Virus record (IMG/VR): IMGVR_UViG_3300025407_001359
From: a virus
DNA: 64,000 nt
Strand: one strand, 5' to 3'
In this document: positions 606 to 60,794 of the stretch, piece after piece
Position numbering within the stretch: the stretch's first letter is position 1
Layout of the letters: every line of letters begins with the position of its first letter
Position numbers and translations under genes: made by a program
The notes under the pieces: model-generated
What the model was told of the DNA's origin: nothing
Database searches by the model: none
The model's input: only the letters and a program-made list of their open reading frames with translations

Positions 606-854
606 TTGCAAAAGCGGGCCCGTAGTATTCTTGATGAATTAGATAACCTAATAGTACACAAAGATCGTGAGAATCTTGTGGAAAGCCGTGCCACCCACGT
701 TATTCAGGGTGCTATCAATCTAATCAACTACATACGTGAAAATTACGACGCTGAACAAGCGGGGGAGTTGGAACGTAGATTAATTAATTCAATCCGTAAT
801 CAAGAGCCAGAAAAATTCAAGCGTGGTGTACGGAGAATGAAACGTGAAAATTAA
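606..854 (+). CDS. Hypothetical protein
   Basis: 82-aa ORF with TTG start, GGAG upstream, TAAATA at 578-583. Confidence 0.6.
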   Translation: MQKRARSILDELDNLIVHKDRENLVESRATHVIQGAINLINYIRENYDAEQAGELERRLINSIRNQEPEKFKRGVRRMKREN

Positions 855-1977: not shown

Positions 1978-1978
1978 A

Positions 1979-3070
1979 ATGGAATTAAATTTTATCAATG
2001 AGGTCCTGCTAGAAGTCAAAGCAGCACCAGCACGTACTCCACATCCTGAAGATGCCATATTTGATGGCACAGCAGTCGCTGAACGTATGGTAGGTGCAAT
2101 GGAATCTGTAATCAAAGATCCTGGCAGCCTGACAATCAAGTGGGATGGATTTCCTGCCTTGGTATTTGGTCGTAATGCCGACGGTCAGTTGACTGTGATG
2201 GACAAGTATATGTTTGACAAGCCGCACGGTCGAGTTACCAGCCCTGAAGATTGGGTACGTTACGATCAAGAGCGCGGCAAGAATCGTAACGATTTGTATC
2301 AACGCATTGCCAACATTTGGCCTGGTCTAGATCAAGCGGTGGGCAATGTACCTGGATACTTCTGGGGCGATCTGCTATGGAGTGCACCACTTCGACCAGT
2401 CAAAGGCCAGTTTGTGTTCAAACCCAATGTGGTTGAATATCATATTCCAGTAAAAAGCAGTCTAGGTCAACAGATAGCCGGACGCCAAGGCGGTATTGTG
2501 GTACACACTTATCTGGCCGACGAACACGCTAGACCACAACCTTGGAACGGGCAAGGGCTTGACTTTAATGCACCCACAGCAATTTTGACGCCCAGTGCCA
2601 ATATCAAATTTACATTGGATGATCCTGTGCGTTTGCACAAAGCCGCAGTGAGCACCTTAAAGAAGTACAGCACAGTGGCCGACAGCTTTTTGGCCGGCCT
2701 AGATGACAAAGCACGTGCTGCGTTGAAACAGTATGCAAACAAAAAGATTACTGGGCAAACGCACGAAGAATTATCAGATTGGTTACAATCTGCTAATGTT
2801 ACTCAAAAATTACGCAAGTTTTTGTTGGGTGAAAACCAAGACGGATACCTGTATCAGCACATCAACGGTGTGGCCGCAGTTTTTGCGATTTGGAACGCGG
2901 TTTATGCGTTCAAAGTCAATTTAACCGAGCAACTGGAACGCCAGGTACAAGGTATTGGGCAATATGTAAACGGACAGCCAGCTGGCGAAGGATTTGTATT
3001 CAGTACCCCAGAAGGCCCAGTAAAATTGGTACAAAGAACTGTGTTTAGCCAGGCATTATTTGCCCGTTAA
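1979..3070 (+). CDS. Ligase-superfamily nucleotidyltransferase-like protein
   Basis: IKWDG (KxDG motif I), EGFVF (motif IV-like), PVKLV (motif V-like). Confidence 0.55.
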   Translation: MELNFINEVLLEVKAAPARTPHPEDAIFDGTAVAERMVGAMESVIKDPGSLTIKWDGFPALVFGRNADGQLTVMDKYMFDKPHGRVTSPEDWVRYDQERGKNRNDLYQRIANIWPGLDQAVGNVPGYFWGDLLWSAPLRPVKGQFVFKPNVVEYHIPVKSSLGQQIAGRQGGIVVHTYLADEHARPQPWNGQGLDFNAPTAILTPSANIKFTLDDPVRLHKAAVSTLKKYSTVADSFLAGLDDKARAALKQYANKKITGQTHEELSDWLQSANVTQKLRKFLLGENQDGYLYQHINGVAAVFAIWNAVYAFKVNLTEQLERQVQGIGQYVNGQPAGEGFVFSTPEGPVKLVQRTVFSQALFAR

Positions 3071-3145
3071 TAACAACCCGTTTTTTGTTCGAAAGCATAA
3101 ATAATTATAGGTCCATTGAGACCACACATATTAAGGAGATTTAAA

Positions 3146-3502
3146 ATGGCAATTCAGACACGTTATGCAGGTGATGCAAATGGCGTTAACAACGTTGACG
3201 CAACATATGATGGTACACTAGATACAGTTATCGGTTTAGGTTTAACAAAGAACCCAATCGGCTTAAAGATTACTTCTATCGGCACATTATCAGCAGCTGA
3301 CTCAGCTACTGGTGGTATCGTTGAATCAATTCTAAAGCAAATCGCTATCGATTCTACTATCACAGCATATCAAGTTAGCTCAACTCAGTTAAGCGTTCTT
3401 TTAGAAGCTACTGGTTCTAACGATGCAACTAAACAAACTCGTGTACGTACAATTTCAGCTAACGCTGTTGTATCAAGCGCAGGTGGCATCAAGTTTGCTT
3501 AA
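3146..3502 (+). CDS. Small probable virion structural protein
   Basis: AAGGAG RBS before ATG 3146; TAAATA at 3098; followed by terminator. Confidence 0.55.
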   Translation: MAIQTRYAGDANGVNNVDATYDGTLDTVIGLGLTKNPIGLKITSIGTLSAADSATGGIVESILKQIAIDSTITAYQVSSTQLSVLLEATGSNDATKQTRVRTISANAVVSSAGGIKFA

Positions 3503-3523
3503 TAGTTTTTAACTATAACGAAG

Positions 3524-3550
3524 AAAGCAATCTTTATGATTGCTTTTTTT
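3524..3550 (+). terminator. Intrinsic terminator
   Basis: AAAGCAATC-TTTAT-GATTGCTTT followed by T-run. Confidence 0.8.
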
Positions 3551-3572
3551 GTGGCCGATAAATACTAGCACT

Positions 3573-4010
3573 ATGTCAGAATCTAATTTGTATTTTTTTC
3601 AAGGCTACAGTCTAGTAGACATCACTGCTACCGGTGTGGTCCGCAGCTCAGATCCTGACGCAGTAGAACGACATCAACAGCGCAACTGGGAAACAGTCAT
3701 ACAATGTATGAGCCTGCGTACTCAACCACAACATATACAACTGCCTACTGTGGTAGAAATTGAATTGGATCGACTGAGCTTTGGTGATTTCTATGAAGGC
3801 ATACAGCAGGTATGGACCTGGCAGTGGGCTGTAGAAGGCAACGGAGTATACGACCTTCCAGGCAAACCTATAGGTGGATTGCAACAGGATTTTGAGCAGG
3901 TACCTATCATTACCGGACTTGCCGAAACTGCTCGATTTATGTTGCCGATATTTTATCCATATGGCACTATAAAAAACATATACTTTAGGCAAATCAATCC
4001 CGTAGCATAA
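3573..4010 (+). CDS. Hypothetical protein
   Basis: ATG 3573 downstream of TAAATA 3559; the track's 3540 start lies inside the terminator. Confidence 0.6.
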   Translation: MSESNLYFFQGYSLVDITATGVVRSSDPDAVERHQQRNWETVIQCMSLRTQPQHIQLPTVVEIELDRLSFGDFYEGIQQVWTWQWAVEGNGVYDLPGKPIGGLQQDFEQVPIITGLAETARFMLPIFYPYGTIKNIYFRQINPVA

Positions 4011-4105
4011 ATACTAATAGATGCTATAAGGCAACTATTAAGGCTCATATCACGGCACACACAGGCAAATCAACGCATCGCTTAACATGAAAAAAGCGAG
4101 GAACT

Positions 4106-4366
4106 ATGTCTACAACTGACATCGAAAAGAAGAGTCTAGAAGCCCACGTAGAACTTTGCGCGGAGCGATACTCTGCTTTGGAGACAAAATTAATACATCT
4201 TGATGGTCGTATGGACAAATTAGAAGCCCATATTGTTGACATCAAGGATTCCATTGGCCGTGTCGGTAGCGACAGTAACAAAACTCTTATCACAATTGGT
4301 ACTGCTATTTTTGTAGCACTACTAGCTGGTGTTTTTGGTTTAGTGGTACACCTCGTATCAAAATGA
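4106..4366 (+). CDS. Coiled-coil protein with C-terminal TM helix (XhlA/holin-like architecture)
   Basis: Heptad region LETKLIHLDGRMDKLE, then hydrophobic ITIGTAIFVALLAGVFGLVV; GAGGA RBS. Confidence 0.5.
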   Translation: MSTTDIEKKSLEAHVELCAERYSALETKLIHLDGRMDKLEAHIVDIKDSIGRVGSDSNKTLITIGTAIFVALLAGVFGLVVHLVSK

Positions 4367-4572
4367 AAATCGTAGAATTAATTAACCAAGTACAAATTGC
4401 CTTAAATAATGAACAAGCTGATTTATTGGGACGTTTTCAACACGAACCCAGCATATTAAAAAACTCTCTAAATGAAAGAGAACAGCTTATAGCAAATCAA
4501 CTAACGACGCAAGATATATTACTTCGTCGTAATGAAAATGGCAAGATCACATACTCAAAAAAAATACGCTAA
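4363..4572 (+). CDS. Hypothetical protein
   Basis: 69-aa ORF overlapping upstream stop. Confidence 0.6.
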   Translation: MKIVELINQVQIALNNEQADLLGRFQHEPSILKNSLNEREQLIANQLTTQDILLRRNENGKITYSKKIR

Positions 4573-5071
4573 AAAACCTCGTACTTCGGTCCCGAAGGAA
4601 ATAACCAACGTTGCTGCAGATTATATCAAACATTGGACTTCTCGCGAGTTAGGCCGTATACAAAGCAATGAACCACGTCCAGTTTGTGTGCAAGTCAAAG
4701 ACGGATATCTAGTGGGACTGTATAGACTCACTGTAAATCCCAACAAAACTTGCGACTTATTTGATGTCAATAGAGAACTGGTGCACCGTTTTGAAAGCAA
4801 AATTTCAGCAATTTTGTACGCTATTTACTTGACCAAACAACAGTATGCCAGGGCAGATGAAATACTGTCAGTTGATAGAATAATAAATAAATGTTATACA
4901 GATATGTTATGTTTACGTAATATTATTGAAAAGGCAAAAAAACAACAAGATTATGTAACAGTAGATACCCGTCTTCCCAGGTTAGAAATGGCTGAAACTC
5001 GGCTAAATCTTGCTCGGGACAGGATGACAAAAATACATAATATAGCTAAATACTACAAAGTTTGGGAATAA
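4532..5071 (+). CDS. Hypothetical protein
   Basis: 179-aa ORF in operon. Confidence 0.6.
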   Translation: MKMARSHTQKKYAKKPRTSVPKEITNVAADYIKHWTSRELGRIQSNEPRPVCVQVKDGYLVGLYRLTVNPNKTCDLFDVNRELVHRFESKISAILYAIYLTKQQYARADEILSVDRIINKCYTDMLCLRNIIEKAKKQQDYVTVDTRLPRLEMAETRLNLARDRMTKIHNIAKYYKVWE

Positions 5072-5076
5072 ACAAA

Positions 5077-5784
5077 ATGAGACTCTCTGAAATGCGTACC
5101 GAAGTAACACCACAAAAAATTAACAAAGTTATGGAAAGCCGCTTTGGTTTTTCTATTGACTATGACAATTTAACTTATGCCAAGGCACAGCGTTTGGCCA
5201 AAGCACTGGGTGAAAACATTCAATCAATCAAACGTTCTTTTGGCGCACACACCGCTGAAAAGAATCCAAAGTACATAGAACTTATGTTGGTCAAAGAAGG
5301 CCTGAACAAATGGCTAACTAGCGAACAAGGTTTGTTTGAAAGTGAAATGGGCAAGAGCGAAGCAGTATTGGCTGCCAAAGATATGGTTGACTCTGTGCAA
5401 GATATGTTGGAAAAAGTATCCAAGATGCAAAACGAACAGATGCCAGCCCTGGTAGATACAATTCGTGACCAAATCGGCAGCGAGCAAGCAGAACAATTCA
5501 AAGGTGCAATGGCTCCTTTACTAACAAGTTTATACCAAGCAGTCAGCACAGGTCGTGACCAAGCTGACACAGCAGTTCGTGGCCTAGCCGGCGAACAAGT
5601 TGAACAGCCAATGGATATGGGCATGGGCGGTGACACTGGATTAGATGCAGGTGCTCCTGCAGACGCCGGTGCTGATCTTGGTCCAGAACCAGAAAGCGAT
5701 TTAGATGCTGATGGCGCTGATGGGTTTGATGCTACTGATGCCGCAGTTGGTGGTGAAGAAGAATTAGGCCGCGAGCGTCGTTAA
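5077..5784 (+). CDS. Acidic helical protein, possible prohead core/scaffold-like
   Basis: ATG 5077 (MRLSEMRTE); very acidic C-terminal tail. Confidence 0.45.
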   Translation: MRLSEMRTEVTPQKINKVMESRFGFSIDYDNLTYAKAQRLAKALGENIQSIKRSFGAHTAEKNPKYIELMLVKEGLNKWLTSEQGLFESEMGKSEAVLAAKDMVDSVQDMLEKVSKMQNEQMPALVDTIRDQIGSEQAEQFKGAMAPLLTSLYQAVSTGRDQADTAVRGLAGEQVEQPMDMGMGGDTGLDAGAPADAGADLGPEPESDLDADGADGFDATDAAVGGEEELGRERR

Positions 5785-37034: not shown

Positions 37035-37205
37035 ATGGATAGACGTTTTTTAGAGATTATGTATCAACAGTGGCAACAAGGCATGACAGATTATGCCAAC
37101 CGCTGGATAGATTTTGTAGAAATGGCAGCTCGTGTCAATGGAACGACTGCTGATCAAATAATGAAAGAGTTACAAAAATGCAGCTGGTTTATAAAGGGAG
37201 ACTGA
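37035..37205 (+). CDS. Small hypothetical protein (56 aa)
   Basis: ATG 37035 directly after curlin stop. Confidence 0.55.
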   Translation: MDRRFLEIMYQQWQQGMTDYANRWIDFVEMAARVNGTTADQIMKELQKCSWFIKGD

Positions 37206-38335
37206 TATGGACAGTGGTACTATGCGCCGCCTTTGCCAGTATCTCCACGAATTGCGTAGCCGGAATCGGGACCATAACGGAACAGGTGAACACTCCGGCA
37301 CAGATTCAACGGGCAAAATCCACGTTAACTGGAACCAAGGGCACTCCAGTAGAAATGGCCGACGCAATAAACACAACAAAGGGTAAGGTCGGTATAGTAT
37401 TTGCCGATGAAACCAAGGTACAGGTAAATGAAAATTCAAAACTGGTCATTGACGAATTTGTTTACGACCCAAAAAATAAAGATGCTGGCAAGCTGGCTCT
37501 CAACATGGCCAGCGGAACAGTTCGCTACGCCTCGGGGGCGATTGCTCATAACAATCCTAATAAGGTGGCTATCAACACTCCTACTGCTACCATTGCTGTT
37601 CGCGGTACTGATTTTACTGCTACTGTGGACGAACTGGGTGAATCAACTGTAATTTTATTACCATCGTGTCCAAGAAAAGATCTACTACCAGACGAAATAG
37701 AAAGACTATGTAAGACTGGTCGTATTGATGTTATCAATGATGCCGGTACCGTTACACTGGATCAACCATTCCAAGGTACCAAAGTTACAGCTAGAAACAT
37801 AGCCCCCACAAAACCTGCCGTACTACGCTTAAACGAAGATGGTATCAGCAACATTTTGATCTTGGCACCGCCACAAGAAATCAAAAACGCAATCAAACAA
37901 AGAGAAGAAGAAAAACAACAAGCCGTAACAGCCTTGAGTCAAAACTTCTTGCAGGGTGTTGACTTAGGTAGTGTGCTGGCCGCACAGAACGCAACCTACT
38001 TGAGCAATGCATTAGAACGTAACTTTTTGGATCAAGACTTCTTGGCCAATGTGTTGACCTTGTTGAACGATCAGTTGGCTGCAGAGTTTGGAAACCTGTT
38101 GGCACCAAAAACAAACAGTTTGTTGCCTGATTATAAAAAAGAAACTGGTGTGGTAGCCACGGTTGATCCTATCAGTGTTACACTATGTCGTACAGACTCT
38201 GGCAACAACACCAGCTGCGTTACCACACCGCACGTACAGAATTCAACAGTTACACAGACACAAAGTGAAAATGTGGCTATTAAAAATCGTATCAACGCTG
38301 GTGGCAATACTTACATAAACATAAAGCAGAACTGA
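37178..38335 (+). CDS. FecR-domain periplasmic protein
   Basis: Signal/TM; IVFADETKVQVNENSKLVIDEFVYD, GTVRYASG, TPTATIAVRGTDF; exact start uncertain. Confidence 0.85.
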   Translation: MQLVYKGRLIWTVVLCAAFASISTNCVAGIGTITEQVNTPAQIQRAKSTLTGTKGTPVEMADAINTTKGKVGIVFADETKVQVNENSKLVIDEFVYDPKNKDAGKLALNMASGTVRYASGAIAHNNPNKVAINTPTATIAVRGTDFTATVDELGESTVILLPSCPRKDLLPDEIERLCKTGRIDVINDAGTVTLDQPFQGTKVTARNIAPTKPAVLRLNEDGISNILILAPPQEIKNAIKQREEEKQQAVTALSQNFLQGVDLGSVLAAQNATYLSNALERNFLDQDFLANVLTLLNDQLAAEFGNLLAPKTNSLLPDYKKETGVVATVDPISVTLCRTDSGNNTSCVTTPHVQNSTVTQTQSENVAIKNRINAGGNTYINIKQN

Positions 38336-38336
38336 T

Positions 38337-39809
38337 ATGAAATTTGTTGCCTACCTATTTGTTGCTGTTTTACTTGCCGGACTTGGTCAGTGCAATCGAG
38401 CTCACGCTGCCGGGGTAGCTGGCTGGAACTACACTACCTATTATGCTGGTGGCGCCAGTCCTAGTACAAGTAATAGAACTGTAGATACTACAGGTGTAAC
38501 TACGTCAATCAATTATGACTGGGGCGGCGGTTTAGTTTTAGATAGCAGACTGTATGATGGAGTTATCATACACTTTCAAGGCTACTTGCAAGCACCAACT
38601 ACAGGAACTTATTATTTTGGCATTACCAGCGACGACGGCAATCAGTTAACTATCAACAATACTGTAGTGACTGCCTGTTGGTGCGAACAAGGACCTACAT
38701 TTAGATCGGGCAGTATATATCTCACAGCAGGACAAATAGTACCAGCGGATATTTGGTATTATGAAAACGGTGGCGGTGCCATGGTACAATTTTGGTGGTA
38801 TACCAACGGTAGTTGGCAAATAGTACCTACGTCAATGCTGGCTACCAGTGCCAGTTATTGGGGGCCCAGTGTTACAGGGTATGGCGGTGGAACCGTTACA
38901 ACTACATCAACTTCGGGATCTGTGACATCTACCTACAACCAACCTGTGACCATTACCTACTACAGCGATGGCTCACAAACCACTGCCAACAATGGCGCCG
39001 CTACACTGATCAGTACAACTGACACAGGTGGATCTTCAACCATCACTGGCACACAACAACAGATGGTCAACGCAGTGGCCTCAAGAATGCCTGGCCTGGG
39101 CGACAACAGCATTTATATAAATCAAACTGGCACAGGCGACACCATTAATATTACACAAAAAGGTGCCGGAAACCGTATTGACGGAGCAACAAGTACTGCA
39201 AACGGACCAGGCTACACCACGGCCGCGCCCATCACCGGCGGCGGTAATCACATTACTGTACGACAACAATCAAACAACAACCTAATTGATTTGGCCGCGG
39301 TGGGTGGCAACAATACTCTTAACCTAAATCAAGGCACAGATAGTAACGGTAATTCAACTGGCTTGGATACTGGCGGACACTATCAGTTTGACTATGTGAA
39401 TGGCACAGGCAATAACTTGACAGTAGTTCAGGAAAATACTGCCACTGGCGCCGGGCAATTTTCCAGCGTGGCCATAATAGGCAACTTAAACACCGTGGGC
39501 ATTACACAAACCGGCAACGCCAGAAATCAATTGTTTGCCACAGTATCGGGCAACAGCAACAACATAACCACAACACAAACAGGAACCAGTGCTGGCTACG
39601 TCAACATCAATGCTTCAGGCAATGGTAACTCTGCTGTGGTAACACAATCAAACGCCGGTAGTGGCGGATCTAATAACGCATCAATAACTTTAATAAATGC
39701 AGGAGCACCGGCGTCGGTGAACCTGACACAAACAGGTGGGCAAAACTATTCGGTAACACAAACCTGCGCCACCACCTGTGGTACAGTAACCGTACGTCAA
39801 GGAAACTAA
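38337..39809 (+). CDS. Secreted PA14-domain / curlin-repeat fusion protein
   Basis: Signal; GYLQAPTTGTYYFGITSDDG..YYENGGG (PA14); C-terminal curlin-like repeats (INQTGTGDTINITQKGAGN). Confidence 0.8.
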   Translation: MKFVAYLFVAVLLAGLGQCNRAHAAGVAGWNYTTYYAGGASPSTSNRTVDTTGVTTSINYDWGGGLVLDSRLYDGVIIHFQGYLQAPTTGTYYFGITSDDGNQLTINNTVVTACWCEQGPTFRSGSIYLTAGQIVPADIWYYENGGGAMVQFWWYTNGSWQIVPTSMLATSASYWGPSVTGYGGGTVTTTSTSGSVTSTYNQPVTITYYSDGSQTTANNGAATLISTTDTGGSSTITGTQQQMVNAVASRMPGLGDNSIYINQTGTGDTINITQKGAGNRIDGATSTANGPGYTTAAPITGGGNHITVRQQSNNNLIDLAAVGGNNTLNLNQGTDSNGNSTGLDTGGHYQFDYVNGTGNNLTVVQENTATGAGQFSSVAIIGNLNTVGITQTGNARNQLFATVSGNSNNITTTQTGTSAGYVNINASGNGNSAVVTQSNAGSGGSNNASITLINAGAPASVNLTQTGGQNYSVTQTCATTCGTVTVRQGN

Positions 39810-40171: not shown

Positions 40172-40240
40172 GTGTGCGGGCACAAGATAAGGTGTCGTGG
40201 GAATCCGTAATCCACGCTAAGGGACCGAAAGGTCCTTTTT
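40172..40240 (+). ncRNA. Candidate small structured RNA (three hairpins ending in a terminator)
   Basis: TAAATA at 40165; hairpins TGTG/CACA, CGTGG/CCACG, AAGGGACC-GAAA-GGTCCTTT plus T-run. Confidence 0.35.
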
Positions 40241-40259: not shown

Positions 40260-40298
40260 TTGACAACAGCTAAATACTATGTTACAGTTTTATTACAG
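40260..40298 (+). promoter_or_regulatory. sigma70-like promoter with embedded late box and Pho-box-like direct repeat
   Basis: TTGACA-17-TACAGT; TAAATA at 40271; reverse complement of 40281-40298 is CTGTAATAAAACTGTAAC. Confidence 0.5.
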
Positions 40299-40319: not shown

Positions 40320-40478
40320 ATGAAACAACGGAAATTAATTTCTCAAGTGTATCAGGCTTGTGTTGACCACGATGCCGAGAAACAGTTTGAACTTCGCAAA
40401 AAAGAGTTCGCCAAAATCTTGAAACACAAGGCCGAAGGCAAACCATTTACACCAAAATGGACAGTAGTACAGATTTAA
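40320..40478 (+). CDS. Small basic protein (52 aa; not in ORF track)
   Basis: GGGAG RBS; [52 protein letters not shown]. Confidence 0.6.
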
Positions 40479-40523
40479 TTATACTGTAATACATCAACTA
40501 CCGATTGGGCGGTAAATACGATT

Positions 40524-41291
40524 ATGAATCGTACTTATCGCTCAATTTTTATTTCCGATGTACACTTTGGCACCAGAGATTGCAAGGCCGAGGAACTCAA
40601 CAACTTTCTCAAACACAACACCTGCGAAACACTTTATCTAGTGGGCGATATAATTGATGCTTGGAAAATTCAACAAAACAAGTGGCGCTGGCGACAGAGT
40701 CACACCAATGCTGTCAGACGAATCTTGGGCCACGCTAAACGTAACACACGAGTTGTATACGTAGCTGGTAACCACGACGAGTTTCTTCGTCCACTGATAC
40801 CATATGGTATGGGTTTTGGACGAGTAGAAATTGTAAATCAATGCGAACACGTGGGAGCCGATGGCAAACGTTATCTGGTTACTCACGGTGATCTGTTTGA
40901 CGGTATTACCAAATTGGCGCCTTGGTTAGCCTTTTTGGGTGACAAGATGTATGACTTTGTGCTAAACTTGAACTCTAGCTACAACTGGATTCGTCATCGT
41001 CTAGGATTTGGCTACTGGTCCCTGTCAAAATTTCTCAAACACAAAGTAAAAAGTAGTGTAGATTTCATTTTTCAATTTGAACGGAATCTAGCAACATACT
41101 GTAAAAAACGTGGCTTCGATGGTGTAATATGTGGGCATATACATCACGCAGAAATCAAAGACATTGACGGAGTCACATATATGAACGATGGCGATTGGGT
41201 GGAATCAATGACAGCCTTGGTCGAACATCACGACGGGCAATGGGAAATCATAACCTGGACACAAGCTCATGACAGTATTACTTCTAACTAA
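40524..41291 (+). CDS. plcP: PlcP-like metallophosphoesterase (phospholipase C; LpxH-like annotation family)
   Basis: SDVH, GDIID, GNHD, HGD, GHIH plus PlcP-typical LAFLGD..YD, YWSLS, DGDWVES.TALVEH. Confidence 0.8.
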   Translation: MNRTYRSIFISDVHFGTRDCKAEELNNFLKHNTCETLYLVGDIIDAWKIQQNKWRWRQSHTNAVRRILGHAKRNTRVVYVAGNHDEFLRPLIPYGMGFGRVEIVNQCEHVGADGKRYLVTHGDLFDGITKLAPWLAFLGDKMYDFVLNLNSSYNWIRHRLGFGYWSLSKFLKHKVKSSVDFIFQFERNLATYCKKRGFDGVICGHIHHAEIKDIDGVTYMNDGDWVESMTALVEHHDGQWEIITWTQAHDSITSN

Positions 41292-42150
41292 ACAAACAAA
41301 AAAAGCCTACGAACGCCGCCGCCTGGAAGAAAGTTTTGCCGATAAAAAAATCAAAACAACTGTCAAGCATCCAAAAGACTTTGATCTGGTAGTGACTCAC
41401 GAAATAGAACACAGCGTCAAATTGAATGGTCAAGATTTTGAGTGGCCCAAATTTGTAATACTGCGTGGCACCAGTGGCGAAAACAATTTTAACCTGGCCA
41501 TTATGCGAGAATTTGAACAGGCCGGAATTCCAGTTATCAACAGTCCCACAGCAATTGAAAATGCCCGAGACAAATTGCGTACTTGCCAGATTTTGGCCAA
41601 CAACGGTATTCGTATTCCCAAAACTTTGATGTTCAAGTGGCCGGTGGATGAAGAATTGATTGAACGAGAAATAGGCTGGCCCTGTGTGGTTAAGGTAGTG
41701 TCGGGCAGTCAAGGCAATGGCGTATATCTCTGCAAAAAACGCAAACATTTCACAGCCTTGATGAATATGGCAGTTACCTTGGGCAATCGTCAAACTCTTA
41801 TTGTACAAGAATACATGGCTGACCGAGTTGGCGAAGACCTACGTGTGTTGGTAGTTGGCGGACGTGTGATTGGCGCTATGCGCAGAATCAGCAATGATGA
41901 TTTTCGTGCCAACATCAGCCAAGGTGGCCACGGTGAGCCATTCCCTGTGTCAGACGAAATTGATTACATATCTAGAGAAGCTGCCAGACTGTTGGGACTA
42001 GAAGTTGCCGGTATTGATTTGTTGTTTGATGGCGACAGTTTCAGAGTATGCGAAGTAAATAGCAATCCAGGTTTTCGTGGATTTGAACGATACTGCGATG
42101 TCAATGTAGCTGATGCCATCACAGAATATATTAGACTAAAAATTCAATGA
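41269..42150 (+). CDS. rimK: RimK-family ATP-grasp ligase
   Basis: INSP.AI..ARDKL, GSQG.GV, IVQEY, DLRVLVVG, FRANISQGG, AGIDLL, EVNSNPGF. Confidence 0.85.
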   Translation: MTVLLLTKQTKKAYERRRLEESFADKKIKTTVKHPKDFDLVVTHEIEHSVKLNGQDFEWPKFVILRGTSGENNFNLAIMREFEQAGIPVINSPTAIENARDKLRTCQILANNGIRIPKTLMFKWPVDEELIEREIGWPCVVKVVSGSQGNGVYLCKKRKHFTALMNMAVTLGNRQTLIVQEYMADRVGEDLRVLVVGGRVIGAMRRISNDDFRANISQGGHGEPFPVSDEIDYISREAARLLGLEVAGIDLLFDGDSFRVCEVNSNPGFRGFERYCDVNVADAITEYIRLKIQ

Positions 42151-43145
42151 AAACTATATTGGTAATAACCGACAACCTAAAGGATCAAATCAATGGTGTG
42201 GTCACAACTTTCAAAAACCTGGAAGATCACGCTGGCCGTGATGGGTATCGTGTTGTTTATTGTGATCCCGGGCAGTTCCCTAATTTTGCTTGCCCTGGCT
42301 ATCCTGAAGTTCGTCTCTGTTGGCCGCACGGCATCAGTAAAAAAATTAAAGCGATATGTCCGGATTTTATACACATCGCTACAGAAGGGCCTGTAGGCCT
42401 ATTTGCAAGGTGGTGGTGTGAGCGCAATCATATTCCTTATAATACTAGTTATCATACTGATTTCCCCGAGTTCTTAAAGACCATGTACCGTGTGCCCAAG
42501 AGCATAACTTATTGGTACCTGCGTTGGTTTCACAAGAACAGTCATCGTGTGCTGGTTACTACTCGCACTATTCAACAGGATTTGGCACAGCACGGATTTG
42601 AACGTATGGTCGTATGGACACGCGGAGTCCGCAGAGACATTGAGCCTAGCCGGGAGCGTTGTGAACGTACACGCCCGTTGTTGCTCAATGTGGGCCGTGT
42701 CAGTAGCGAAAAAGGTCTAGCCAGCCTGGTGGAGTTGGACAGTGACCAGTACAACCTGGTCATTGTGGGTGATGGACCATATATGAGTCGTGCTAGACAG
42801 TTGTTGCCCGAAGCTCATTTTGTTGGCTACAAGTCTGGACAAGAATTAGTGGACTATTATCATCAAGCAGACGTTTTTGTATTCCCTAGCCAAGCAGATA
42901 CTTTTGGCCTGGTTATTATTGAAGCAATGGCACAAGGTTGTCCAGTGGCGGCTTTTCCTGTACAAGGTCCTGTAGACATTATCGAACAGGGTGTAAATGG
43001 TTATATGTCGTGGGACCTGGAAGAGGCTGTACGCGAATGCTTGACCCTAGATCGAAACGTGGTCAAACAGTCTAGTCAACAGTGGACTTGGGAAGAATGT
43101 TGGCGTATATTCCGTGAAAATCTAGTAGAAGCGGATAAATATTAA
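42147..43145 (+). CDS. agt: GT4 glycosyltransferase, Agt-like glycolipid synthase
   Basis: QINGVVTT, CPGYPEVRL, HIATEGPVG, TSYHTDFPE, VGRVSSEK, FPSQADTFGLVIIEAMAQG. Confidence 0.75.
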   Translation: MKTILVITDNLKDQINGVVTTFKNLEDHAGRDGYRVVYCDPGQFPNFACPGYPEVRLCWPHGISKKIKAICPDFIHIATEGPVGLFARWWCERNHIPYNTSYHTDFPEFLKTMYRVPKSITYWYLRWFHKNSHRVLVTTRTIQQDLAQHGFERMVVWTRGVRRDIEPSRERCERTRPLLLNVGRVSSEKGLASLVELDSDQYNLVIVGDGPYMSRARQLLPEAHFVGYKSGQELVDYYHQADVFVFPSQADTFGLVIIEAMAQGCPVAAFPVQGPVDIIEQGVNGYMSWDLEEAVRECLTLDRNVVKQSSQQWTWEECWRIFRENLVEADKY

Positions 43146-43165
43146 AATGTAAATAGGACTTTAAA

Positions 43166-44896
43166 ATGGCAATAACTATTGGTGGCGGCATAACAATTGG
43201 TAGCGGCATCAGCCTAGGGGGCGGTACAATTTCTTCTTCCCCTACACCAACCTATAGCGTAACACCCGGTGCTGGTAGCATCAACGAAGGCAGCGGTCTA
43301 ACATTCACAGTATCTGGTACCAACATCACAGATGGCACATACTACTGGGCTATCAATAACGTAACCACCAGTACCGCAGACTTTGGAACTAACTCTGGTT
43401 TGTTTACTATTACTGGCAACTCAGGTTCATTTACAGTAACACCCACAGCTGACAACTTGACAGAAGGAGCAGAAACCTTTACTGTATCTGTTCTCACAGG
43501 TAGTACTTCTGGTACAGTAGTCGCTACCAGTACTTCTGTCACAGTCAATGATACAAGCACAACACCTGCTCCAAGCTATACTGCAACTCCTACTGCAAAC
43601 AATGTCAACGAAGGCAGTAGCTTAACCATTAATGTCACAGGATCAAATATCACAGATGGCACATACTACTGGACCATTAATAACGGCACAACAAGTACTG
43701 CTGACTTTGGTACCAATAGTGGAAGTTTCTCCATTACAAGTAACTCAGGATCATTTAGTGTAACACCCACAGCTGACAACTTGACAGAAGGAGCAGAAAC
43801 CTTTACAGTACAAATCCGTACTGGTAGTACTAGTGGTACAGTAGTAGCCACAACATCAACCATCACCGTCAACGATACAAGCACAACTCCTGGCCGCGGT
43901 GGAAATCGAGTAGTATTCTTTGCGTACAGCAGTGCCCCAGCATCGTTTGGAGCCTATTCTGTTGATCCATACACTAGCATAGTGTCAAGTACCACTGTAC
44001 CACAGTCAACAATAACTGCTGGATATTGTGCATCTTCAGGCAACGTGTTAATGGTGGCGGACGGGTACGGACAAGGTGGCACAACCAACACCGCTGGAAA
44101 TGCATTGACTACCAGTGACGGTATTACCTGGAACCAGGTCACCAGATTGCCACAATTTAGTCCCAACCCTGCTAACATTCGTTGGAGCGGTCTTGCATAC
44201 GGTAACGGAACCTGGGTAGCAGTTGCAGGCGGTCCTAATGCACAATCTACACAAGTAGCCTACAGTACCAATAATGGAAGCACGTGGACCAGTATTAACC
44301 CGTTGCCTAGCAACTACTACGTCGGCGGTGGATTTGGTAATAATATTTTTGTGGCTCTTGCTCCGTTTGGTTCCAATGGATACAGCAGTACAGATGGAAT
44401 AACTTGGACACAAGGCCCAGTAAGACCGACCAATTTTTCAACAACACCGGTATATGTACCATCATTGAACAAGTGGTATGCAATTGATCACACGCCGAGC
44501 ACAAGTGGAAACTTGATGGTAGCAACTTCAACCAATAATATGTCATCATGGACCAGCAATACCTACTCAACTCCTGGTATTCTCTACTACGATAACGTAC
44601 TATGGGCTTACGGAAACGGAGTGTTTGTGGTACTAAATACTCTTCAGACTTTCAGTTACACCAGCACCGACGGTGTAAACTGGACACAACATTCTGGCGT
44701 ATTTTCGGGTCAATTCTATTGGAATAAACTGGTATGGACCGGAACAGAATTTATTGCAGCCAGTACCACCATAAATCCATATGTTTCGTCTTATTGGTAC
44801 AGTCCCGACGGAGCCACATGGACACAAATCACATCAGTTCCAGGAGATCCAACTGGCACACAAGGACTTCTATTAGATGGCCTGTTGACCTCATAA
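43166..44896 (+). CDS. Tail/adhesin-like protein: two Calx-beta/Ig-like repeats plus Asp-box beta-propeller
   Basis: Two 108-aa repeats; SxDGxTW boxes (TSDGITW, STDGITW, STDGVNW, SPDGATW); late boxes at 43136 and 43150. Confidence 0.7.
   Translation: MAITIGGGITIGSGISLGGGTISSSPTPTYSVTPGAGSINEGSGLTFTVSGTNITDGTYYWAINNVTTSTADFGTNSGLFTITGNSGSFTVTPTADNLTEGAETFTVSVLTGSTSGTVVATSTSVTVNDTSTTPAPSYTATPTANNVNEGSSLTINVTGSNITDGTYYWTINNGTTSTADFGTNSGSFSITSNSGSFSVTPTADNLTEGAETFTVQIRTGSTSGTVVATTSTITVNDTSTTPGRGGNRVVFFAYSSAPASFGAYSVDPYTSIVSSTTVPQSTITAGYCASSGNVLMVADGYGQGGTTNTAGNALTTSDGITWNQVTRLPQFSPNPANIRWSGLAYGNGTWVAVAGGPNAQSTQVAYSTNNGSTWTSINPLPSNYYVGGGFGNNIFVALAPFGSNGYSSTDGITWTQGPVRPTNFSTTPVYVPSLNKWYAIDHTPSTSGNLMVATSTNNMSSWTSNTYSTPGILYYDNVLWAYGNGVFVVLNTLQTFSYTSTDGVNWTQHSGVFSGQFYWNKLVWTGTEFIAASTTINPYVSSYWYSPDGATWTQITSVPGDPTGTQGLLLDGLLTS
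43253..43891 (+). repeat. Intragenic tandem duplication, 324-nt period
   Basis: ACCCACAGCTGACAACTTGACAGAAGGAGCAGAAACCTTTAC identical at 43441 and 43765. Confidence 0.9.
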
Positions 44897-44906
44897 TAAA
44901 TACTTG

Positions 44907-46922
44907 ATGCTCAAAAAAATACTTGTCAGTCCCTGGACTGCTCTACTAACTCTAGCTCTAGTTGTTGCTGTACGTGCAGCTGACCCTACATTTGTTGAAA
45001 GCGTAAGACTACGTTACTTTGATACTTTGGTAACAAGTCGGCCAGCTGAAACCATTGGTGTGGACGTGGTAAATATTGATGAAAAAGCCCTGGAACGATA
45101 CGGGCAATTTCCTTTTTCAAGAGACATATATGGAAAAATTATTAGTGATTTGTACCGTCGCAATGCGGGCCTTGTTGTATTTAATATTCTCACTCCTGAT
45201 CGTGACCGCCTTGGTCGAGATGCGGATTATATAGCCGCACTTAAACAATTCCCAACAGTACTACCCAGCATAGGTAGTACACAAACTCGTAACACTCCTA
45301 GAGCTCCAGGATCTGTAGTTATTGGCCCGTACGGCTTGGATACCTTTGTAACTTATCCTGGACTGATTGCCAATATACCTGCGGTGGAATCAGCGGCCGC
45401 TGGTGTTGGCGTTACCAATACACTCCCTGAAGTGGATGGTGTTGTACGTCGTATGCCCTTGGTAGTTGCTTACAATGGCAAACTGTATCCAAGTTTAGCA
45501 ATGGAGACCTTACGTGTGGCCGGTGCTGACTCCACAGTACAGATCAAAGTAAATGAAAATGGCGTTGAGAAAATGCGTATTCCCAAGTTTGGTCCTGTGA
45601 CCACAGACAGCTTGAGTCGCATCTGGATTGACTGGAGTCTAGTTCCAGAGCATTACAGTTTAACAGACTTGCCTCAGGATTTTGAAGGCAACATAGTCAT
45701 TGTGGGTGTGAGTGCCCAAGGTCTTGCTAATCCTGTTGCTACTAGTCGTGGTGAAATGTTGCCACAAGATTTACAAGCAAGTGTACTGGGTACAGTGATT
45801 GCCAATCGAGACAGACCGGCTATTACCAGACCTGACTGGGCCGACGGCGGCGAACTTTTAGCCTTGGTAGTATTGGGCATAGCGTTACTTTTTTTAACAA
45901 GGTGGGTATATGTTGGACTCGTTACTGGTGTTGTCACTATTGGTGTTTTGCTTCCTTTATCTCAGTATTTTTACACGAATTATCTTTGGCTTACTGACGT
46001 TACTGCCCTTATTGGCGGTCTTGTTGTTGTTCTCCTTCATGCTTACGGTGTTAAGTTTGTAAGCGAATTCCTACAGAAACAACAAATCAAAAAGCAATTT
46101 GGTAGTTATGTTAATCCTACCATAGTAGAACGATTACAAAAGGATCCATCACTGATTAAATTGGGCGGTGAACGCAAAGAGCTTTCAATTGTCATGACTG
46201 ACCTGCGTGGCTTTACTACACTAGGCGAAAGTTTTGGCGATGACGTGGAAGGCCTAACACAGATCATGAATGACTATATGACAGCCTTGAGTGTACCAGT
46301 ATTAAAGAACAATGGTACACTGATCAAGTTTATCGGTGATGCCAGCTTGCACGTACACGGCGCCCCGTTAGATGACGTCAACCACGCACATACCGCGGTA
46401 CTCACAGCATTGGACATGATTCGAGCTATCGAAGAATTTAACGTGGAGTTGGTGGCCAAAGGACGCCCACCGGTGGGTATGGGTGCTGGAGTCAACACCG
46501 GTGAGACCTTGATTGGTAACATTGGTGCCAAAACCAAATTTGGTTATGACGTGTTGGGCGACTCAGTCAGTACTGCTGCGCGACTAGAAGGACAGACCAA
46601 AGCATATGGAGTATTATTGATCATTGGCCCACGCACCGCAGAACTGGTACGCAATGAAATACCTGTAATGGAACTTGATTGCATAGCAGTCAAAGGCAAA
46701 ACAATTGGATTAAATATATATACTCCGGAACAGAGTACTAAAGAGCACGAAGATTTCTTAAAATTGTATTACGCCGGCGAATGGAAAAAAGCATTAGCAT
46801 TGATACCAGGGTGTGTAAAAGCCAACCCTAGAATGGAAAAGTACTATGATGCAATGGCCGCACGATTGGAAGAAGGTTGTCCCGCCAGCTGGGACGGAGT
46901 ATATCACGCTACTAGTAAATAG
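44907..46922 (+). CDS. CHASE2-domain class III adenylate/guanylate cyclase
   Basis: N-terminal TM, CHASE2 (IDEKAL..YGQFPF, DGVVRRMPL), 3 TM, TDLRGFT, KFIGDA, GVNTG, LGDSV..AARLE; late box at 44897. Confidence 0.92.
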   Translation: MLKKILVSPWTALLTLALVVAVRAADPTFVESVRLRYFDTLVTSRPAETIGVDVVNIDEKALERYGQFPFSRDIYGKIISDLYRRNAGLVVFNILTPDRDRLGRDADYIAALKQFPTVLPSIGSTQTRNTPRAPGSVVIGPYGLDTFVTYPGLIANIPAVESAAAGVGVTNTLPEVDGVVRRMPLVVAYNGKLYPSLAMETLRVAGADSTVQIKVNENGVEKMRIPKFGPVTTDSLSRIWIDWSLVPEHYSLTDLPQDFEGNIVIVGVSAQGLANPVATSRGEMLPQDLQASVLGTVIANRDRPAITRPDWADGGELLALVVLGIALLFLTRWVYVGLVTGVVTIGVLLPLSQYFYTNYLWLTDVTALIGGLVVVLLHAYGVKFVSEFLQKQQIKKQFGSYVNPTIVERLQKDPSLIKLGGERKELSIVMTDLRGFTTLGESFGDDVEGLTQIMNDYMTALSVPVLKNNGTLIKFIGDASLHVHGAPLDDVNHAHTAVLTALDMIRAIEEFNVELVAKGRPPVGMGAGVNTGETLIGNIGAKTKFGYDVLGDSVSTAARLEGQTKAYGVLLIIGPRTAELVRNEIPVMELDCIAVKGKTIGLNIYTPEQSTKEHEDFLKLYYAGEWKKALALIPGCVKANPRMEKYYDAMAARLEEGCPASWDGVYHATSK

Positions 46923-47025: not shown

Positions 47026-47745
47026 TTAAACGGCATCAAGAGCGCGAACCTTTGCAAGCCCGCAACGTCTAAGTAGTTGTATATAAGTCCAACCCAAATC
47101 CCATTCCCAAGGTTTCATACTTAATTTGGCACTGGCCGGATCTGCGTGATGATTGTTGTGTAATTCTTCTCCACCAATAAAGAACGCCCAAGGCACAATA
47201 TTAGTTGAGTAATCGTTGGTCCTGGTATTACGATAACCCCACCAGTGACCAAAGCCGTTGATTACACCAGCTGCCCATAATGGAATCCAAACCATTTGCC
47301 ATAACCAAGGCAACCAACCCCAGGCCCAGCCCCATACGGCACAGTTGATAAAGAACATCAACACAATACCCACAAAGTTAAATCTAGTATACACATTGCG
47401 TTCCATCCAGTCGTTGGGTGTGCCGGCTCCATAGGTGTCGACCATTTCTTGATCCCGTGCTGCATCGGCATAATAAAACGCACCACCCAAGAATATTTGC
47501 CAAATGCCGTACACGTGAGGACTATGCGGATCACCTTCTCCATCTGTATAACGATGATGTTTACGATGTGTTGCTACCCATTGCTTGGTAACCATACCAG
47601 TGGTAAGCCACAACCAGAATCGCATAAAGTGTTGTACACGTGTATCAAACGTGACTGATCGATGTGCTTGGCTACGATGTAAATAAAGTGTAACGCAGGC
47701 TATGGTGATGTGAGTCATCACCAGGATGTATAATATTAATGTCAT
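47026..47745 (-). CDS. Membrane fatty-acid desaturase (delta-9/DesA-like)
   Basis: Three His boxes HR.QAH, HRKHH, HNNHH; DPHSP. Confidence 0.92.
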   Translation of the reverse strand: MTLILYILVMTHITIACVTLYLHRSQAHRSVTFDTRVQHFMRFWLWLTTGMVTKQWVATHRKHHRYTDGEGDPHSPHVYGIWQIFLGGAFYYADAARDQEMVDTYGAGTPNDWMERNVYTRFNFVGIVLMFFINCAVWGWAWGWLPWLWQMVWIPLWAAGVINGFGHWWGYRNTRTNDYSTNIVPWAFFIGGEELHNNHHADPASAKLSMKPWEWDLGWTYIQLLRRCGLAKVRALDAV

Positions 47746-48066: not shown

Positions 48067-48624
48067 TTACATCCACAACCAGAGGCCCTGGCTCATCAGC
48101 AACAATCCCATTCCGGCAACCAAGAAGCTGGCCCAAAACAGTTCCATACGTACTGCTAGAATACTTGCAGACAACAATACGATTGCCAGTTGATATGCTG
48201 TTGATGCATATCCGATCCAAGGTGATTTCTTTTTAGCCAAATCACGTTCGGCTTCTAATCTCTTTGCCTCTGTGTATAATGCTTTCTTGCCTTCGGTACC
48301 TTCTTCGTAGCTGGCAGCTTTGTCGGCCCATTGTTTGGCCAACACAGGATCTTTGGACTGTTGCGCAGCCAATTCGTACTGTGTTTGTTTGATACTTTTA
48401 GCTTGATAAAAATTCCACAGGTCATTGGCTTTGATAGTATTGTTCATAACAGTACTACTTAAACCGCCGCCAATAACTGTGTTGAATGCCAACAATGCTG
48501 CAAACACGTTGATGACCATACCGGCTTTGTCTTTGATCTTGGCTTCACGTTCGCTACGTGAGCCTGTCAGGGGTTCTTTACGACCCTTGCTGATTAAATT
48601 TAATGCGCTGTCTAATAGACTCAT
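48067..48624 (-). CDS. DUF4337-like membrane protein
   Basis: KANDLWNFYQAKSIK, YQLAIVL.SA; ATG 48624. Confidence 0.65.
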   Translation of the reverse strand: MSLLDSALNLISKGRKEPLTGSRSEREAKIKDKAGMVINVFAALLAFNTVIGGGLSSTVMNNTIKANDLWNFYQAKSIKQTQYELAAQQSKDPVLAKQWADKAASYEEGTEGKKALYTEAKRLEAERDLAKKKSPWIGYASTAYQLAIVLLSASILAVRMELFWASFLVAGMGLLLMSQGLWLWM

Positions 48625-48746
48625 AATATGTATCCTATGATTAATCCTGTTATAAATGCAAATGTCATCCATTTGATCAAATCTTTGTCAGTCCACAGTT
48701 GTTGGTCCAATGGATGATCTCCCGGGTTCCATTTTAAGTTACTCAT
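48621..48746 (-). CDS. Small membrane peptide (41 aa)
   Basis: AGAGGA RBS before ATG 48746; C-terminal TM. Confidence 0.5.
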   Translation of the reverse strand: MSNLKWNPGDHPLDQQLWTDKDLIKWMTFAFITGLIIGYIL

Positions 48747-50486: not shown

Positions 50487-51704
50487 ATGAATGTAGGGTT
50501 TATTGGTATTGGTAAATTGGGTATGGCTTGTGCCGAAGTAATGGCCAGCAAGCACACAGTAACTGGTTATGATATTTATCCACGCACTAGCGACAAAATT
50601 AAGATTGCAACCAATCTTGAAGAAGCGGTAACCGGTAAAGATCTCATCTTTATTGCGGTACAAACACCGCACGATCCTATTTACGGCGGCGATCAACCTA
50701 TTACTCATTTACGCAACAAAGATTTTGATTACACAATCGTAAATCAAGTGTTGGCAGATGTCAATCAATATGCCAAACCCGAACAATTAGTAGTCCTTAT
50801 CTCAACAGTTCTTCCCGGCACTACACGGCGCGAACTGAGGAACAACATTACCAATGCACGTTTCATTTACAATCCTTACCTTATTGCTATGGGATCAGTT
50901 GAATGGGACATGGTCAACCCCGAGATGGTTATGATTGGTACCGAAGACGGTAGCGAAACTGGCGATGCTAGAGAGCTGATTGACTTCTATAAAACAATAA
51001 TGGAGAACGACCCACGTTACGTAGTTGGTACCTGGGACGAAGTAGAATGTATCAAAGTGTTTTACAACACATTCATTAGTGCCAAGATTGGCCTGGTCAA
51101 TATGATACAAGACGTGGCTATCAAACAAGGCAACATCAACGTGGACGTGGTCACTGCGGCATTGGCCAACAGTACTATGCGTATCATGGGACCCAAGTAT
51201 ATGACAGCAGGTATGGGCGACGCAGGACCTTGCCATCCACGCGACAACATTGCCTTGCGTTACCTAGCAGAAACGCTGGACATTGGTTACGATATTTTTG
51301 ACACCATCATGAAAGCACGTGAACAACAGGCAAAAAATATGGCACGTTTTATCTATGACCATTGCGAAGGACTGCCAGTGTACATTCACGGTAAAGCATA
51401 CAAACCGGGTGTAGAATATCTTGAAGGCAGTTACAGTCTGTTGGTAGGTTACTATTTAAAAGAGATGGGCATTGATCCGGTCTACATTGATCCCTTGACT
51501 GAACCTTCAAATCCGTCGGTTGTTAAAGGTTGCATCTTGTTGGCACACAATCAACAGGTGACCTATGGCTATGCTGGAGTTACTGAAAATCAACCTACCT
51601 ATTGCATTTTTGACCAGGGCAGTATCGTTATTGATCCTTGGCGCCGGTATCCACAGAACGGTAATCTTCGAGTTATACATTATGGCAACACCCGTGCTAA
51701 TTAA
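50487..51704 (+). CDS. ugd: UDP-glucose/GDP-mannose dehydrogenase family protein
   Basis: GIGKLG Rossmann, STVLPGTT, catalytic Lys (IKVFYN), Cys in GPCHPRD, AYKP. Confidence 0.88.
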   Translation: MNVGFIGIGKLGMACAEVMASKHTVTGYDIYPRTSDKIKIATNLEEAVTGKDLIFIAVQTPHDPIYGGDQPITHLRNKDFDYTIVNQVLADVNQYAKPEQLVVLISTVLPGTTRRELRNNITNARFIYNPYLIAMGSVEWDMVNPEMVMIGTEDGSETGDARELIDFYKTIMENDPRYVVGTWDEVECIKVFYNTFISAKIGLVNMIQDVAIKQGNINVDVVTAALANSTMRIMGPKYMTAGMGDAGPCHPRDNIALRYLAETLDIGYDIFDTIMKAREQQAKNMARFIYDHCEGLPVYIHGKAYKPGVEYLEGSYSLLVGYYLKEMGIDPVYIDPLTEPSNPSVVKGCILLAHNQQVTYGYAGVTENQPTYCIFDQGSIVIDPWRRYPQNGNLRVIHYGNTRAN

Positions 51705-59586: not shown

Positions 59587-59661
59587 GCCGTTAATGATGT
59601 AATAAAGTAGTAATAATGCTCTCCTAGGGTATATTATAAATACCTTAGCGAGGGCATTTCT

Positions 59662-60203: not shown

Positions 60204-60794
60204 ATGCCTAATCTAGTACCTATTGTTCTCGAAAAAACCGCCAATGGCGAACGTTCATACGACATATACTCACGACTGTTAAAAGACCGCATTGTGATGC
60301 TGGATACCGAAGTAAACGAGCACACTTCTAGTCTACTGGTAGCACAGTTGTTATTTTTAGAAAGCGAAAATCCCGATGCAGACATCCTATTCTACATTAA
60401 TAGCCCCGGTGGTAGCGTTACAGCAGGTATGGCGATATACGATACACTACAGTTTATCAAGCCTGATGTCAGCACCATTGTGATGGGGCAGGCTTGCAGT
60501 ATGGGCAGTCTACTGAGTACAGCCGGAGCTGCAGGCAAACGATTCATACTGCCACACGCTCGTCATATGATTCACCAACCGTCGGGCGGGGCTCGTGGAC
60601 AAGCAACCGATATTCAGATCCAAGCACAAGAAATCTTGAAAATGAAACATTACTTGACCGAAATTTATGTCAAGCACAACTCTGCAGGCAAAACCTACGA
60701 CGAATTTGCAGCCGATATGGAACGAGACTTCTTTATGAATGCCGAAGAAGCAGTAGCATACGGTTTGGTAGACCGGATCATCACAAAACGGTAA
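60204..60794 (+). CDS. clpP: ClpP protease subunit
   Basis: [26 protein letters not shown] (Ser), MIHQP (His), ERD (Asp); promoter TTGACA-17-TACACT at 60147. Confidence 0.96.

Follow-up and report, generated by a model that had tools for sequence, protein, structure and literature searches.

Can a phage carry the means to draw phosphorus from the membrane lipids of its host? The question is raised by three overlapping genes at positions 40524-43145 of a 64,000-nucleotide stretch of viral DNA (hereafter the window), which corresponds to bases 28729-92728 of the 157,933-bp IMG/VR virus record IMGVR_UViG_3300025407_001359, rated 43% complete by CheckV. The original prediction, made from the letters of the window alone, described a metallophosphoesterase and, two genes on in the same overlapping operon, a glycosyltransferase of the GT4 family, and took the two for PlcP and Agt, the enzymes of bacterial membrane-lipid renovation. 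Three overlapping open reading frames (ORFs) on the plus strand bear out this layout:

40524..41291, + strand: predicted plcP-type phospholipase C, a metallophosphoesterase and LpxH paralog (255 aa; by Pfam, NCBIfam, tree and fold match)
41269..42150, + strand: RimK-family ATP-grasp ligase, a variable insert between plcP and agt (293 aa; by Pfam and TIGR00768)
42147..43145, + strand: agt-type GT4, predicted diacylglycerol glycosyltransferase of the Agt/GTcp clade (332 aa; by Pfam, tree and residues)

The ORFs of plcP and the RimK-type gene overlap by 23 bases and those of the RimK-type gene and the GT4 by four. In Pfam terms the products score 45.9 bits for Metallophos, 161.7 bits for RimK ATP-grasp, and 89.4 and 62.7 bits for Glycos_transf_1 and Glyco_transf_4, respectively. 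The original prediction gave the middle gene no identity. We consider it probable that the outer two genes are a phage version of the bacterial type 2 operon for lipid renovation, plcP-agt, through which phosphorus would be drawn from the host membrane.

Identity of the metallophosphoesterase

That the first gene is PlcP-type, and not LpxH, is well supported as an assignment of family, from which the phospholipase C activity is predicted. The PlcP-type motifs claimed at the outset are present as the full metal-binding set of these enzymes (D12-x-H14, G41-D42, G82-N83-H84-D85, H121 and G204-H205-x-H207), the residues of which vary little or not at all among 31 phage and cellular homologs. The phage protein is 42-59% identical to bacterial proteins encoded directly 5' of agt-type genes. 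Five alphaproteobacterial genomes each have exactly one homolog, at 48-55% identity, and the relatives used for the comparisons, from Pelagibacteraceae, Shinella, Pararhizobium, Erythrobacter and Paraburkholderia, lie at 47-55%. By contrast, it fails both LpxH equivalog models, with 40.6 bits on NF003743 (cut-off 134) and 28.7 bits on TIGR01854 (cut-off 190.35), and tblastn with the phage PlcP does not reach Escherichia coli LpxH even at an E-value of 1e-3. The two families also coexist in bacteria: five beta- and gammaproteobacterial genomes with the pair each encode a separate true LpxH as well (225-293 bits), while the PlcP homologs of the two of these genomes for which the search reported them score just 33-36 bits on the LpxH model.

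Grouping with LpxH was one of the refutations named beforehand in the original prediction; the phylogeny instead places the phage protein with the bacterial PlcP-type proteins. In a tree of 112 proteins, six LpxH sequences are split from 106 PlcP-like ones with 100% support and by a very long branch. Within the latter, 45 of the 47 phage sequences make up one PlcP clade (98%), which is the sister group of the sampled cellular PlcPs.

The resemblance to LpxH emerges at the level of the fold. A sequence search of the PDB with PlcP gave no match at an E-value of 0.01 or better, whereas the top 24 PDB fold matches of its AlphaFold model (predicted local distance difference test, pLDDT, 83) are all LpxH, with template modeling (TM) scores of 0.55-0.60 and, along the full sequence, 16-19% identity. 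Between core strands of the model, residues from about 122 to 195 form a helical segment. LpxH structures have a lid that holds lipid, and on our reading of the model this segment may be its equivalent; if so, it would fit a lipid substrate.

Identity of the glycosyltransferase

The third gene encodes a GT4 of the Agt/GTcp clade, an assignment of family that is again well supported, whereas the activity and the sugar donor are predicted from it. Among at least 597 cellular stretches that encode a relative (in a scan with one genome per species), the best 80 align over the full length at 40-45% identity; these include the homologs from Rhizobiaceae, Pelagibacteraceae and Erythrobacter. They come mostly from Alphaproteobacteria (Pararhizobium, Shinella, Pelagibacteraceae single-cell genomes, Erythrobacter SD-21, Caulobacter and Bradyrhizobium), along with some Beta- and Gammaproteobacteria. 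Five bacterial genomes each gave one GT4 match of 265-281 bits and 42-45% identity, the next GT4 paralog scoring at most 94 bits. The phylogeny against other GT4s that was called for at the outset sets the phage protein inside the Agt-type clade: the phage GT4s constitute a single clade (100%), nested in an Agt-like clade beside a sequence from an OCS116 single-cell genome, and this Agt-like clade, phage members included, separates from 22 other GT4 paralogs with 100% support.

The clade is marked by the motifs GRVAxEKN and FPSxTDTFG and by a His104-Asp256 dyad (Wei et al., bioRxiv 10.1101/2021.03.25.437072). In the GTcp of SAR11, the residues G16, G82, G85, R190, K195, T257, F258, G259 and E264 have been tested for donor binding and H104, T162, R163 and W320 for binding of diacylglycerol (bioRxiv 10.1101/2021.03.25.437072). 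All of these, together with D256, the Asp that replaces the usual Glu of GT4s, are kept in the phage GT4 (14/14), the numbering of GTcp having been verified on a Pelagibacteraceae homolog of 335 aa. The window copy reads GRVSSEKG and FPSQADTFG, with the dyad at H103 and D251; part of the phage GT4 clade has Glu in the dyad (FPSxWETFG), while the window copy keeps Asp. The Agt motifs quoted in the original prediction are all found in the translation, namely QINGVV (14-19), CPGYPEVRL (49-57), HIATEGP (76-82), TSYHT (100-104) and FPSQADTFG (246-254). A PDB profile search with the GT4 alignment recovered distant GT4s only, over the C-terminal domain only, and to our knowledge no Agt-type structure has been solved.

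Linkage and spread of the plcP-agt pair

The plcP-agt pair is a conserved unit. In 55 of 57 related viral loci the gene immediately before that of the GT4 encodes PlcP, and the remaining two loci are cut at a contig edge. With a profile query, relatives of the GT4 were found to be encoded in at least 593 viral stretches. Among cellular loci the same adjacency holds in 62 of 80. The two genes are apart in the Rhizobiaceae Shinella and Pararhizobium, as they also are in Agrobacterium. Immediate succession of plcP and agt characterizes the type 2 operons described for SAR11 HTCC7211 and Erythrobacter (Sebastian et al., 2016; PMC4796936).

A phage PlcP homolog is also found in another setting: the cultured pelagimyophage Mosig of Pelagibacter (MT647606, 93031-94866) has one of 49.8% identity, divergent from an adjoining gene for a phosphate ATP-binding cassette (ABC) transporter, with no Agt-type gene near it. 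The original prediction knew of no characterization of the pair in a phage, and the literature that we searched contained no description of plcP-agt in a virus; a survey of pelagimyophages (PMC7029224) is likewise without mention of the gene.

Source of the DNA

The source is a T4-like jumbo phage, because the record is collinear with the genome of a complete relative and because the relatives carry gp23 and terminase. Of 235 ORFs of at least 100 aa, 159 match this relative (G011; 356,865 bp, rated 100% complete) in collinear order at a mean identity of 64%. The gp23 capsid gene is present in G011 (329 bits) and four other relatives, all of 289-357 kb, with scores of 262-329 bits; four of these five relatives have a terminase match, three of them above the Pfam cut-off, with that of G011 at 20.3 bits against a cut-off of 22.6. 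Neither gp23 nor the T4 portal has a match in the record itself, because it is a 43% fragment. It does encode other genes of large phages, including a ribonucleotide reductase, a helicase, an ATP-dependent ligase, GroEL, a Lon-type protease and a tail-fiber-like protein.

ARAGORN finds seven tRNA genes at record positions 661-5634 and a permuted two-piece transfer-messenger RNA (tmRNA) with the tag ANDSQFALAA at record positions 99296-99691 (L184:7296-7691). Permuted tmRNAs are typical of Alphaproteobacteria, and this one gives a weak hint of an alphaproteobacterial host.

The region upstream of plcP

Between the preceding block of genes and plcP lie the following elements:

40219..40238, + strand: terminator-like hairpin and T run, closing the upstream FecR/PA14 gene block (8-bp stem with 4 G-C pairs, tail TTCTTTG; consensus match only)
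40260..40288, + strand: putative sigma-70-like promoter TTGACA-17-TACAGT with extended TG, 5' of a small ORF (10/12 consensus positions)
40280..40297, - strand: Pho-box-like tandem repeat TGTAATA-AAAC-TGTAACA, 7-bp direct repeats in 11-bp phase, overlapping the -10 of the 40260 promoter
40320..40478, + strand: conserved 52-aa ORF preceding plcP (tblastn conservation)
40474..40491, + strand: degenerate repeat copy TTTAATT-ATAC-TGTAATA with two mismatches, some 50 nt 5' of the start of plcP
40513..40518, + strand: TAAATA, a box resembling T4-type late promoters, separated by 5 nt from the ATG of plcP and kept upstream of plcP in relatives

The repeat TGTAAYA-N4-TGTAAYA was derived by aligning the regions upstream of plcP in the relatives, and 40280-40297 is its sole exact match in the 158-kb record. 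Across 577 kb of related loci it has 46 matches with at most one mismatch, of which most fall at two fixed places: 41-53 nt before plcP (with 0-1 mismatch), or 223-230 nt before it on the opposite strand, where the 52-aa ORF follows closely. Within the 357 kb of G011 the motif occurs solely as three phased repeats shortly before plcP (in 107689-108530), against 0.2 matches in shuffled sequence. The cellular counterparts offer a parallel, in that a Pelagibacteraceae site upstream of plcP (TTTAACA-ATTC-TGTAAC) is nearly the phage motif and a Pho-box-like site with at most two mismatches is present in 21 of 59 cellular plcP upstream regions as opposed to none of 59 coding-sequence controls. Architecture, position and uniqueness in the genome fit a Pho box, whereas the E. 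coli consensus CTGTCAT, which may not be that of the host, differs by three mismatches; as CTGTCAT-N4-CTGTCAT it gives 7 matches at three mismatches where 7.4 are expected by chance, and so is uninformative here. A further copy of the repeat with one mismatch, at 59598, was dropped from consideration as it precedes an SprT-like gene unrelated to phosphate.

The second signal is probably the phage's own. TAAATA occurs within 40 nt upstream of 28 of the 159 plus-strand ORFs, against about three by chance, and the (A/G)TAAATA box is probably a T4-late-type promoter of the phage. Further examples of it occur at 43140-43160 and 44890-44900. That host PhoB controls the operon through the candidate Pho box, laid over the phage late-type promoter, is to our mind a serious possibility that stops somewhat short of being probable. 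The 52-aa ORF, which sits between the two repeat sites, is 55-87% identical in 21 related phage loci; tblastn found it in no cellular locus, and it has no Pfam family.

Neighboring genes

The original prediction also pointed to two genes further downstream, the dehydrogenase among them as a possible source of UDP-glucuronate:

47026..47745, - strand: short DesA-type acyl-lipid desaturase, 239 aa (by NF049918 and three His boxes)
50487..51704, + strand: divergent nucleotide-sugar dehydrogenase, nearest to UDP-glucose 6-dehydrogenases (by PDB matches and TIGR03026; UDP, uridine diphosphate)

The desaturase is a real ORF of its family, judging by the model score (370 bits on NF049918 against a cut-off of 400, over profile positions 10-241 of 385) and by the His boxes HRSQAH, HRKHH and HNNHH, and is 85% conserved in relatives. 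It adds another membrane-lipid gene to the variable region in which the pair lies. G011 has a second desaturase copy, at 32% identity.

The UDP-glucose dehydrogenase claimed at 50487 is likewise a real ORF of that family, though divergent: it reaches 140 bits on TIGR03026 (cut-off 190), falling below every NCBIfam cut-off, and each of its top PDB matches is a UDP-glucose 6-dehydrogenase (74 bits). The gene is not tied to the module, being widespread in T4-like phages, with 62% identity to its counterpart in Synechococcus phage Bellamy, 50% to that in Pelagibacter phage HTVC008M and 83% conservation in G011. When isolate phage records were searched with the GT4, neither Bellamy nor HTVC008M yielded an Agt-type gene. 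We therefore rejected the dehydrogenase as a part of the module as unproven, given that the same gene occurs in T4-like phages without a found Agt-type gene; its role as a source of UDP-glucuronate is possible but unproven.

Closer to the operon, FecR-domain and PA14-domain proteins are encoded upstream (37178-39809, + strand), and a fusion of a CHASE2 sensor with a class III cyclase is encoded 1.8 kb 3' of the GT4 (44904-46922, + strand); the synteny of the two is kept in the closest relatives, and in several relatives the cyclase comes directly after the GT4. In the window the GT4 and the cyclase are separated by a 576-aa protein that matches Ig_3 and Calx-beta weakly (43166-44896, + strand) and is absent from the relatives in which the two genes abut. 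A DUF4337 protein (48067-48672, - strand) and a ClpP protease (60204-60794, + strand; 269 bits) are encoded further on.

Proposed function and alternative explanations

Membrane phospholipids constitute a sizeable internal store of phosphorus. During infection, the PlcP-type enzyme would cleave host glycerophospholipids to diacylglycerol and a phospho-head group, and the Agt-type GT4 would use a UDP-sugar to attach glucose or glucuronate to the diacylglycerol, so that the bilayer would be kept as phosphorus-free glycolipid while the lipid phosphorus is released. The phosphorus so gained would serve the DNA of a 357-kb genome, with its high phosphorus demand, and expression would come under host PhoB through the Pho-box-like repeat along with the phage late-type promoter box.

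Several points weigh against this proposal. The phage PlcP clade is sister to all of the sampled cellular PlcPs, rather than nested within them, which indicates a long independent history in phages during which the substrate could have changed. Our comparisons were made with close relatives, from Shinella, Pararhizobium, Pelagibacteraceae, Erythrobacter and Paraburkholderia, of the characterized proteins SMc00171, MED193_17359, PB7211_983/960, Atu2297 and PA3219/PA3218. The conversion of phospho-head groups to usable phosphate needs a phosphatase, and none was identified adjoining the module. Finally, the plcP-proximal repeat departs from the motif at two positions and the exact copy lies in inverted orientation, overlapping a -10 box, so that control by PhoB is less clear here than in the relatives.

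The names currently attached to the homologs suggest a different function altogether, in which the genes would be LpxH (UDP-2,3-diacylglucosamine diphosphatase) and a glycosyltransferase of lipopolysaccharide or the cell wall, altering lipid A or lipopolysaccharide. The Joint Genome Institute (JGI) names are 'LpxH' and 'glycosyltransferase involved in cell wall biosynthesis', GenBank labels the Mosig and S-SRM01 homologs UDP-2,3-diacylglucosamine hydrolase, the predicted fold of PlcP is nearest to LpxH, and virus surveys file lpxH, which may be of the same family as phage plcP, among the lipopolysaccharide genes (PMC9611531, PMC10653327). We hold this to be extremely improbable in view of equivalog scores far under the cut-offs, the fully supported split in the tree, the missing tblastn link to E. 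coli LpxH and the separate true LpxH in genomes holding the pair; moreover, the GT4 is orthologous to the plcP-adjacent gene and not to lipopolysaccharide GT4s, and keeps the diacylglycerol-binding residues. An alternative that leaves the chemistry unchanged would place the benefit elsewhere, namely in blocking the adsorption or DNA injection of competing phages, in resisting grazers or antimicrobials, or in stabilizing the membrane over the long latent period of a jumbo phage. The location of the module in a variable region with envelope genes (the FecR and PA14 proteins, the CHASE2 cyclase, the DesA-type desaturase and the DUF4337 protein) speaks for it, as do published papers that link lipid renovation to phage attachment and predation (PMC9938194, PMC9804370, PMC9457565) and the proposal, in the pelagimyophage paper, that phage glycosyltransferases alter the surface (PMC7029224). 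However, the operon-specific Pho-box-like site points to phosphate stress as the trigger, and the PlcP homolog of Mosig sits beside a phosphate transporter gene; we regard such a benefit as unlikely to be what the module is for, though a gain of phosphorus and a benefit at the envelope are compatible and not exclusive.

The phosphorus-drawing operon that we favor would act through two genes, and a further alternative turns on the third, which lies between them. The product of this gene passes the broad RimK subfamily model TIGR00768 (235 bits; cut-off 143) and fails the equivalog models, including that of the S6 ligase (NF007764, 144 against 331) and those of MptN, LysX and CofF. All three genes might belong to one pathway with a product other than plain glycolipid, with the RimK-type ligase, for example, adding an amino acid. 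The overlaps of the three genes suggest coupled translation, and 26 of the best 80 viral RimK loci (found by an alignment query, a single-protein RimK query having found none) adjoin PlcP and/or the GT4. In addition, the RimK copies of the window and of the sister locus L006 are about 40% identical, which suggests repeated capture at the same slot. Nevertheless, 48 of those 80 loci have neither partner nearby, none of 80 cellular plcP-agt loci contains a RimK gene, and the gene is present in just eight of the 57 related viral loci, most related phages, the complete G011 among them, having the pair without it. The slot holds unrelated ORFs in other phages, or a second, different metallophosphoesterase (L050:5177-6004, L015:5052-5999, L026:5231-5818). 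The plcP/agt junction is thus a hot spot for cargo, and the RimK-type ligase is accessory cargo in a variable slot, outside the pathway; we rejected it as an obligatory third step and find a joint pathway quite improbable. Amide-linked glucuronosyl-diacylglycerol lipids, such as a taurine amide, are reported in some Alphaproteobacteria. That the ligase may tailor the glycolipid in a similar manner, by joining glutamate or some other amine in amide linkage to the carboxylate of glucuronosyl-diacylglycerol, giving a head group foreign to the host, strikes us as very improbable.

If the proposal of a phosphorus-drawing plcP-agt operon is true, the pair lets a phage tap the phospholipids of the host membrane while leaving the membrane intact, and infection could shift the lipid composition of aquatic bacteria and add to glycolipid pools. 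Further, the surveys in which viral 'lpxH' is assigned to the synthesis of lipopolysaccharide (PMC9611531, PMC10653327) would call for a fresh reading.

Comparison with known systems

Phage PlcP shares with LpxH (PDB 5K8K, 6PH9, 8QJZ) the metallophosphoesterase core, and this is its best fold match; it is set apart by low identity, by failure of the LpxH models, by its separate clade and by the coexistence of PlcP-type proteins and true LpxH in bacteria. The GT4, at 332 aa, is close in length to Agt of Agrobacterium tumefaciens (Atu2297) and GTcp of Pelagibacter HTCC7211 (WP_008545403.1), which have 334 aa. In common with them it has GRV(A/S)xEK(N/G), FPSxxDTFG, the His-Asp dyad and the tested donor- and diacylglycerol-binding residues, and it is 41-45% identical to the Rhizobiaceae and Pelagibacteraceae orthologs used in place of these characterized proteins.

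As a unit, the closest parallel is the bacterial type 2 operon of HTCC7211 (PB7211_983/PB7211_960) and Erythrobacter NAP1, with which the phage version shares the gene order on one strand; PB7211_960 has been expressed in E. coli and the lipids examined by mass spectrometry (PMC4796936). Over their full lengths the phage PlcP and Agt are 48-49% and 41% identical, respectively, to those of Pelagibacteraceae single-cell genomes, and 51% and 42% identical to those of Erythrobacter SD-21. The tandem 7-bp repeat with an 11-bp phase upstream is very like that before the Pelagibacteraceae plcP. Unlike the bacterial operon, the phage version resides in a T4-like jumbo phage, has a TAAATA box just 5' of the start codon, adds the 52-aa ORF and a variable cargo slot (occupied here by RimK), and belongs to old clades of its own.

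There is also a broader parallel in the phosphate-stress genes of phages. The pstS, phoA and phoH genes of phages help to take up or sense external phosphate. Like these genes of cyanophages and pelagiphages, plcP-agt represents a host Pho-regulon function in T4-like aquatic phages, with its Pho-box-like site and, in Mosig, a PlcP homolog beside a phosphate transporter gene; it differs from them in that its target would be phosphorus stored inside the cell, in the membrane lipids, rather than phosphate taken up from the surroundings.

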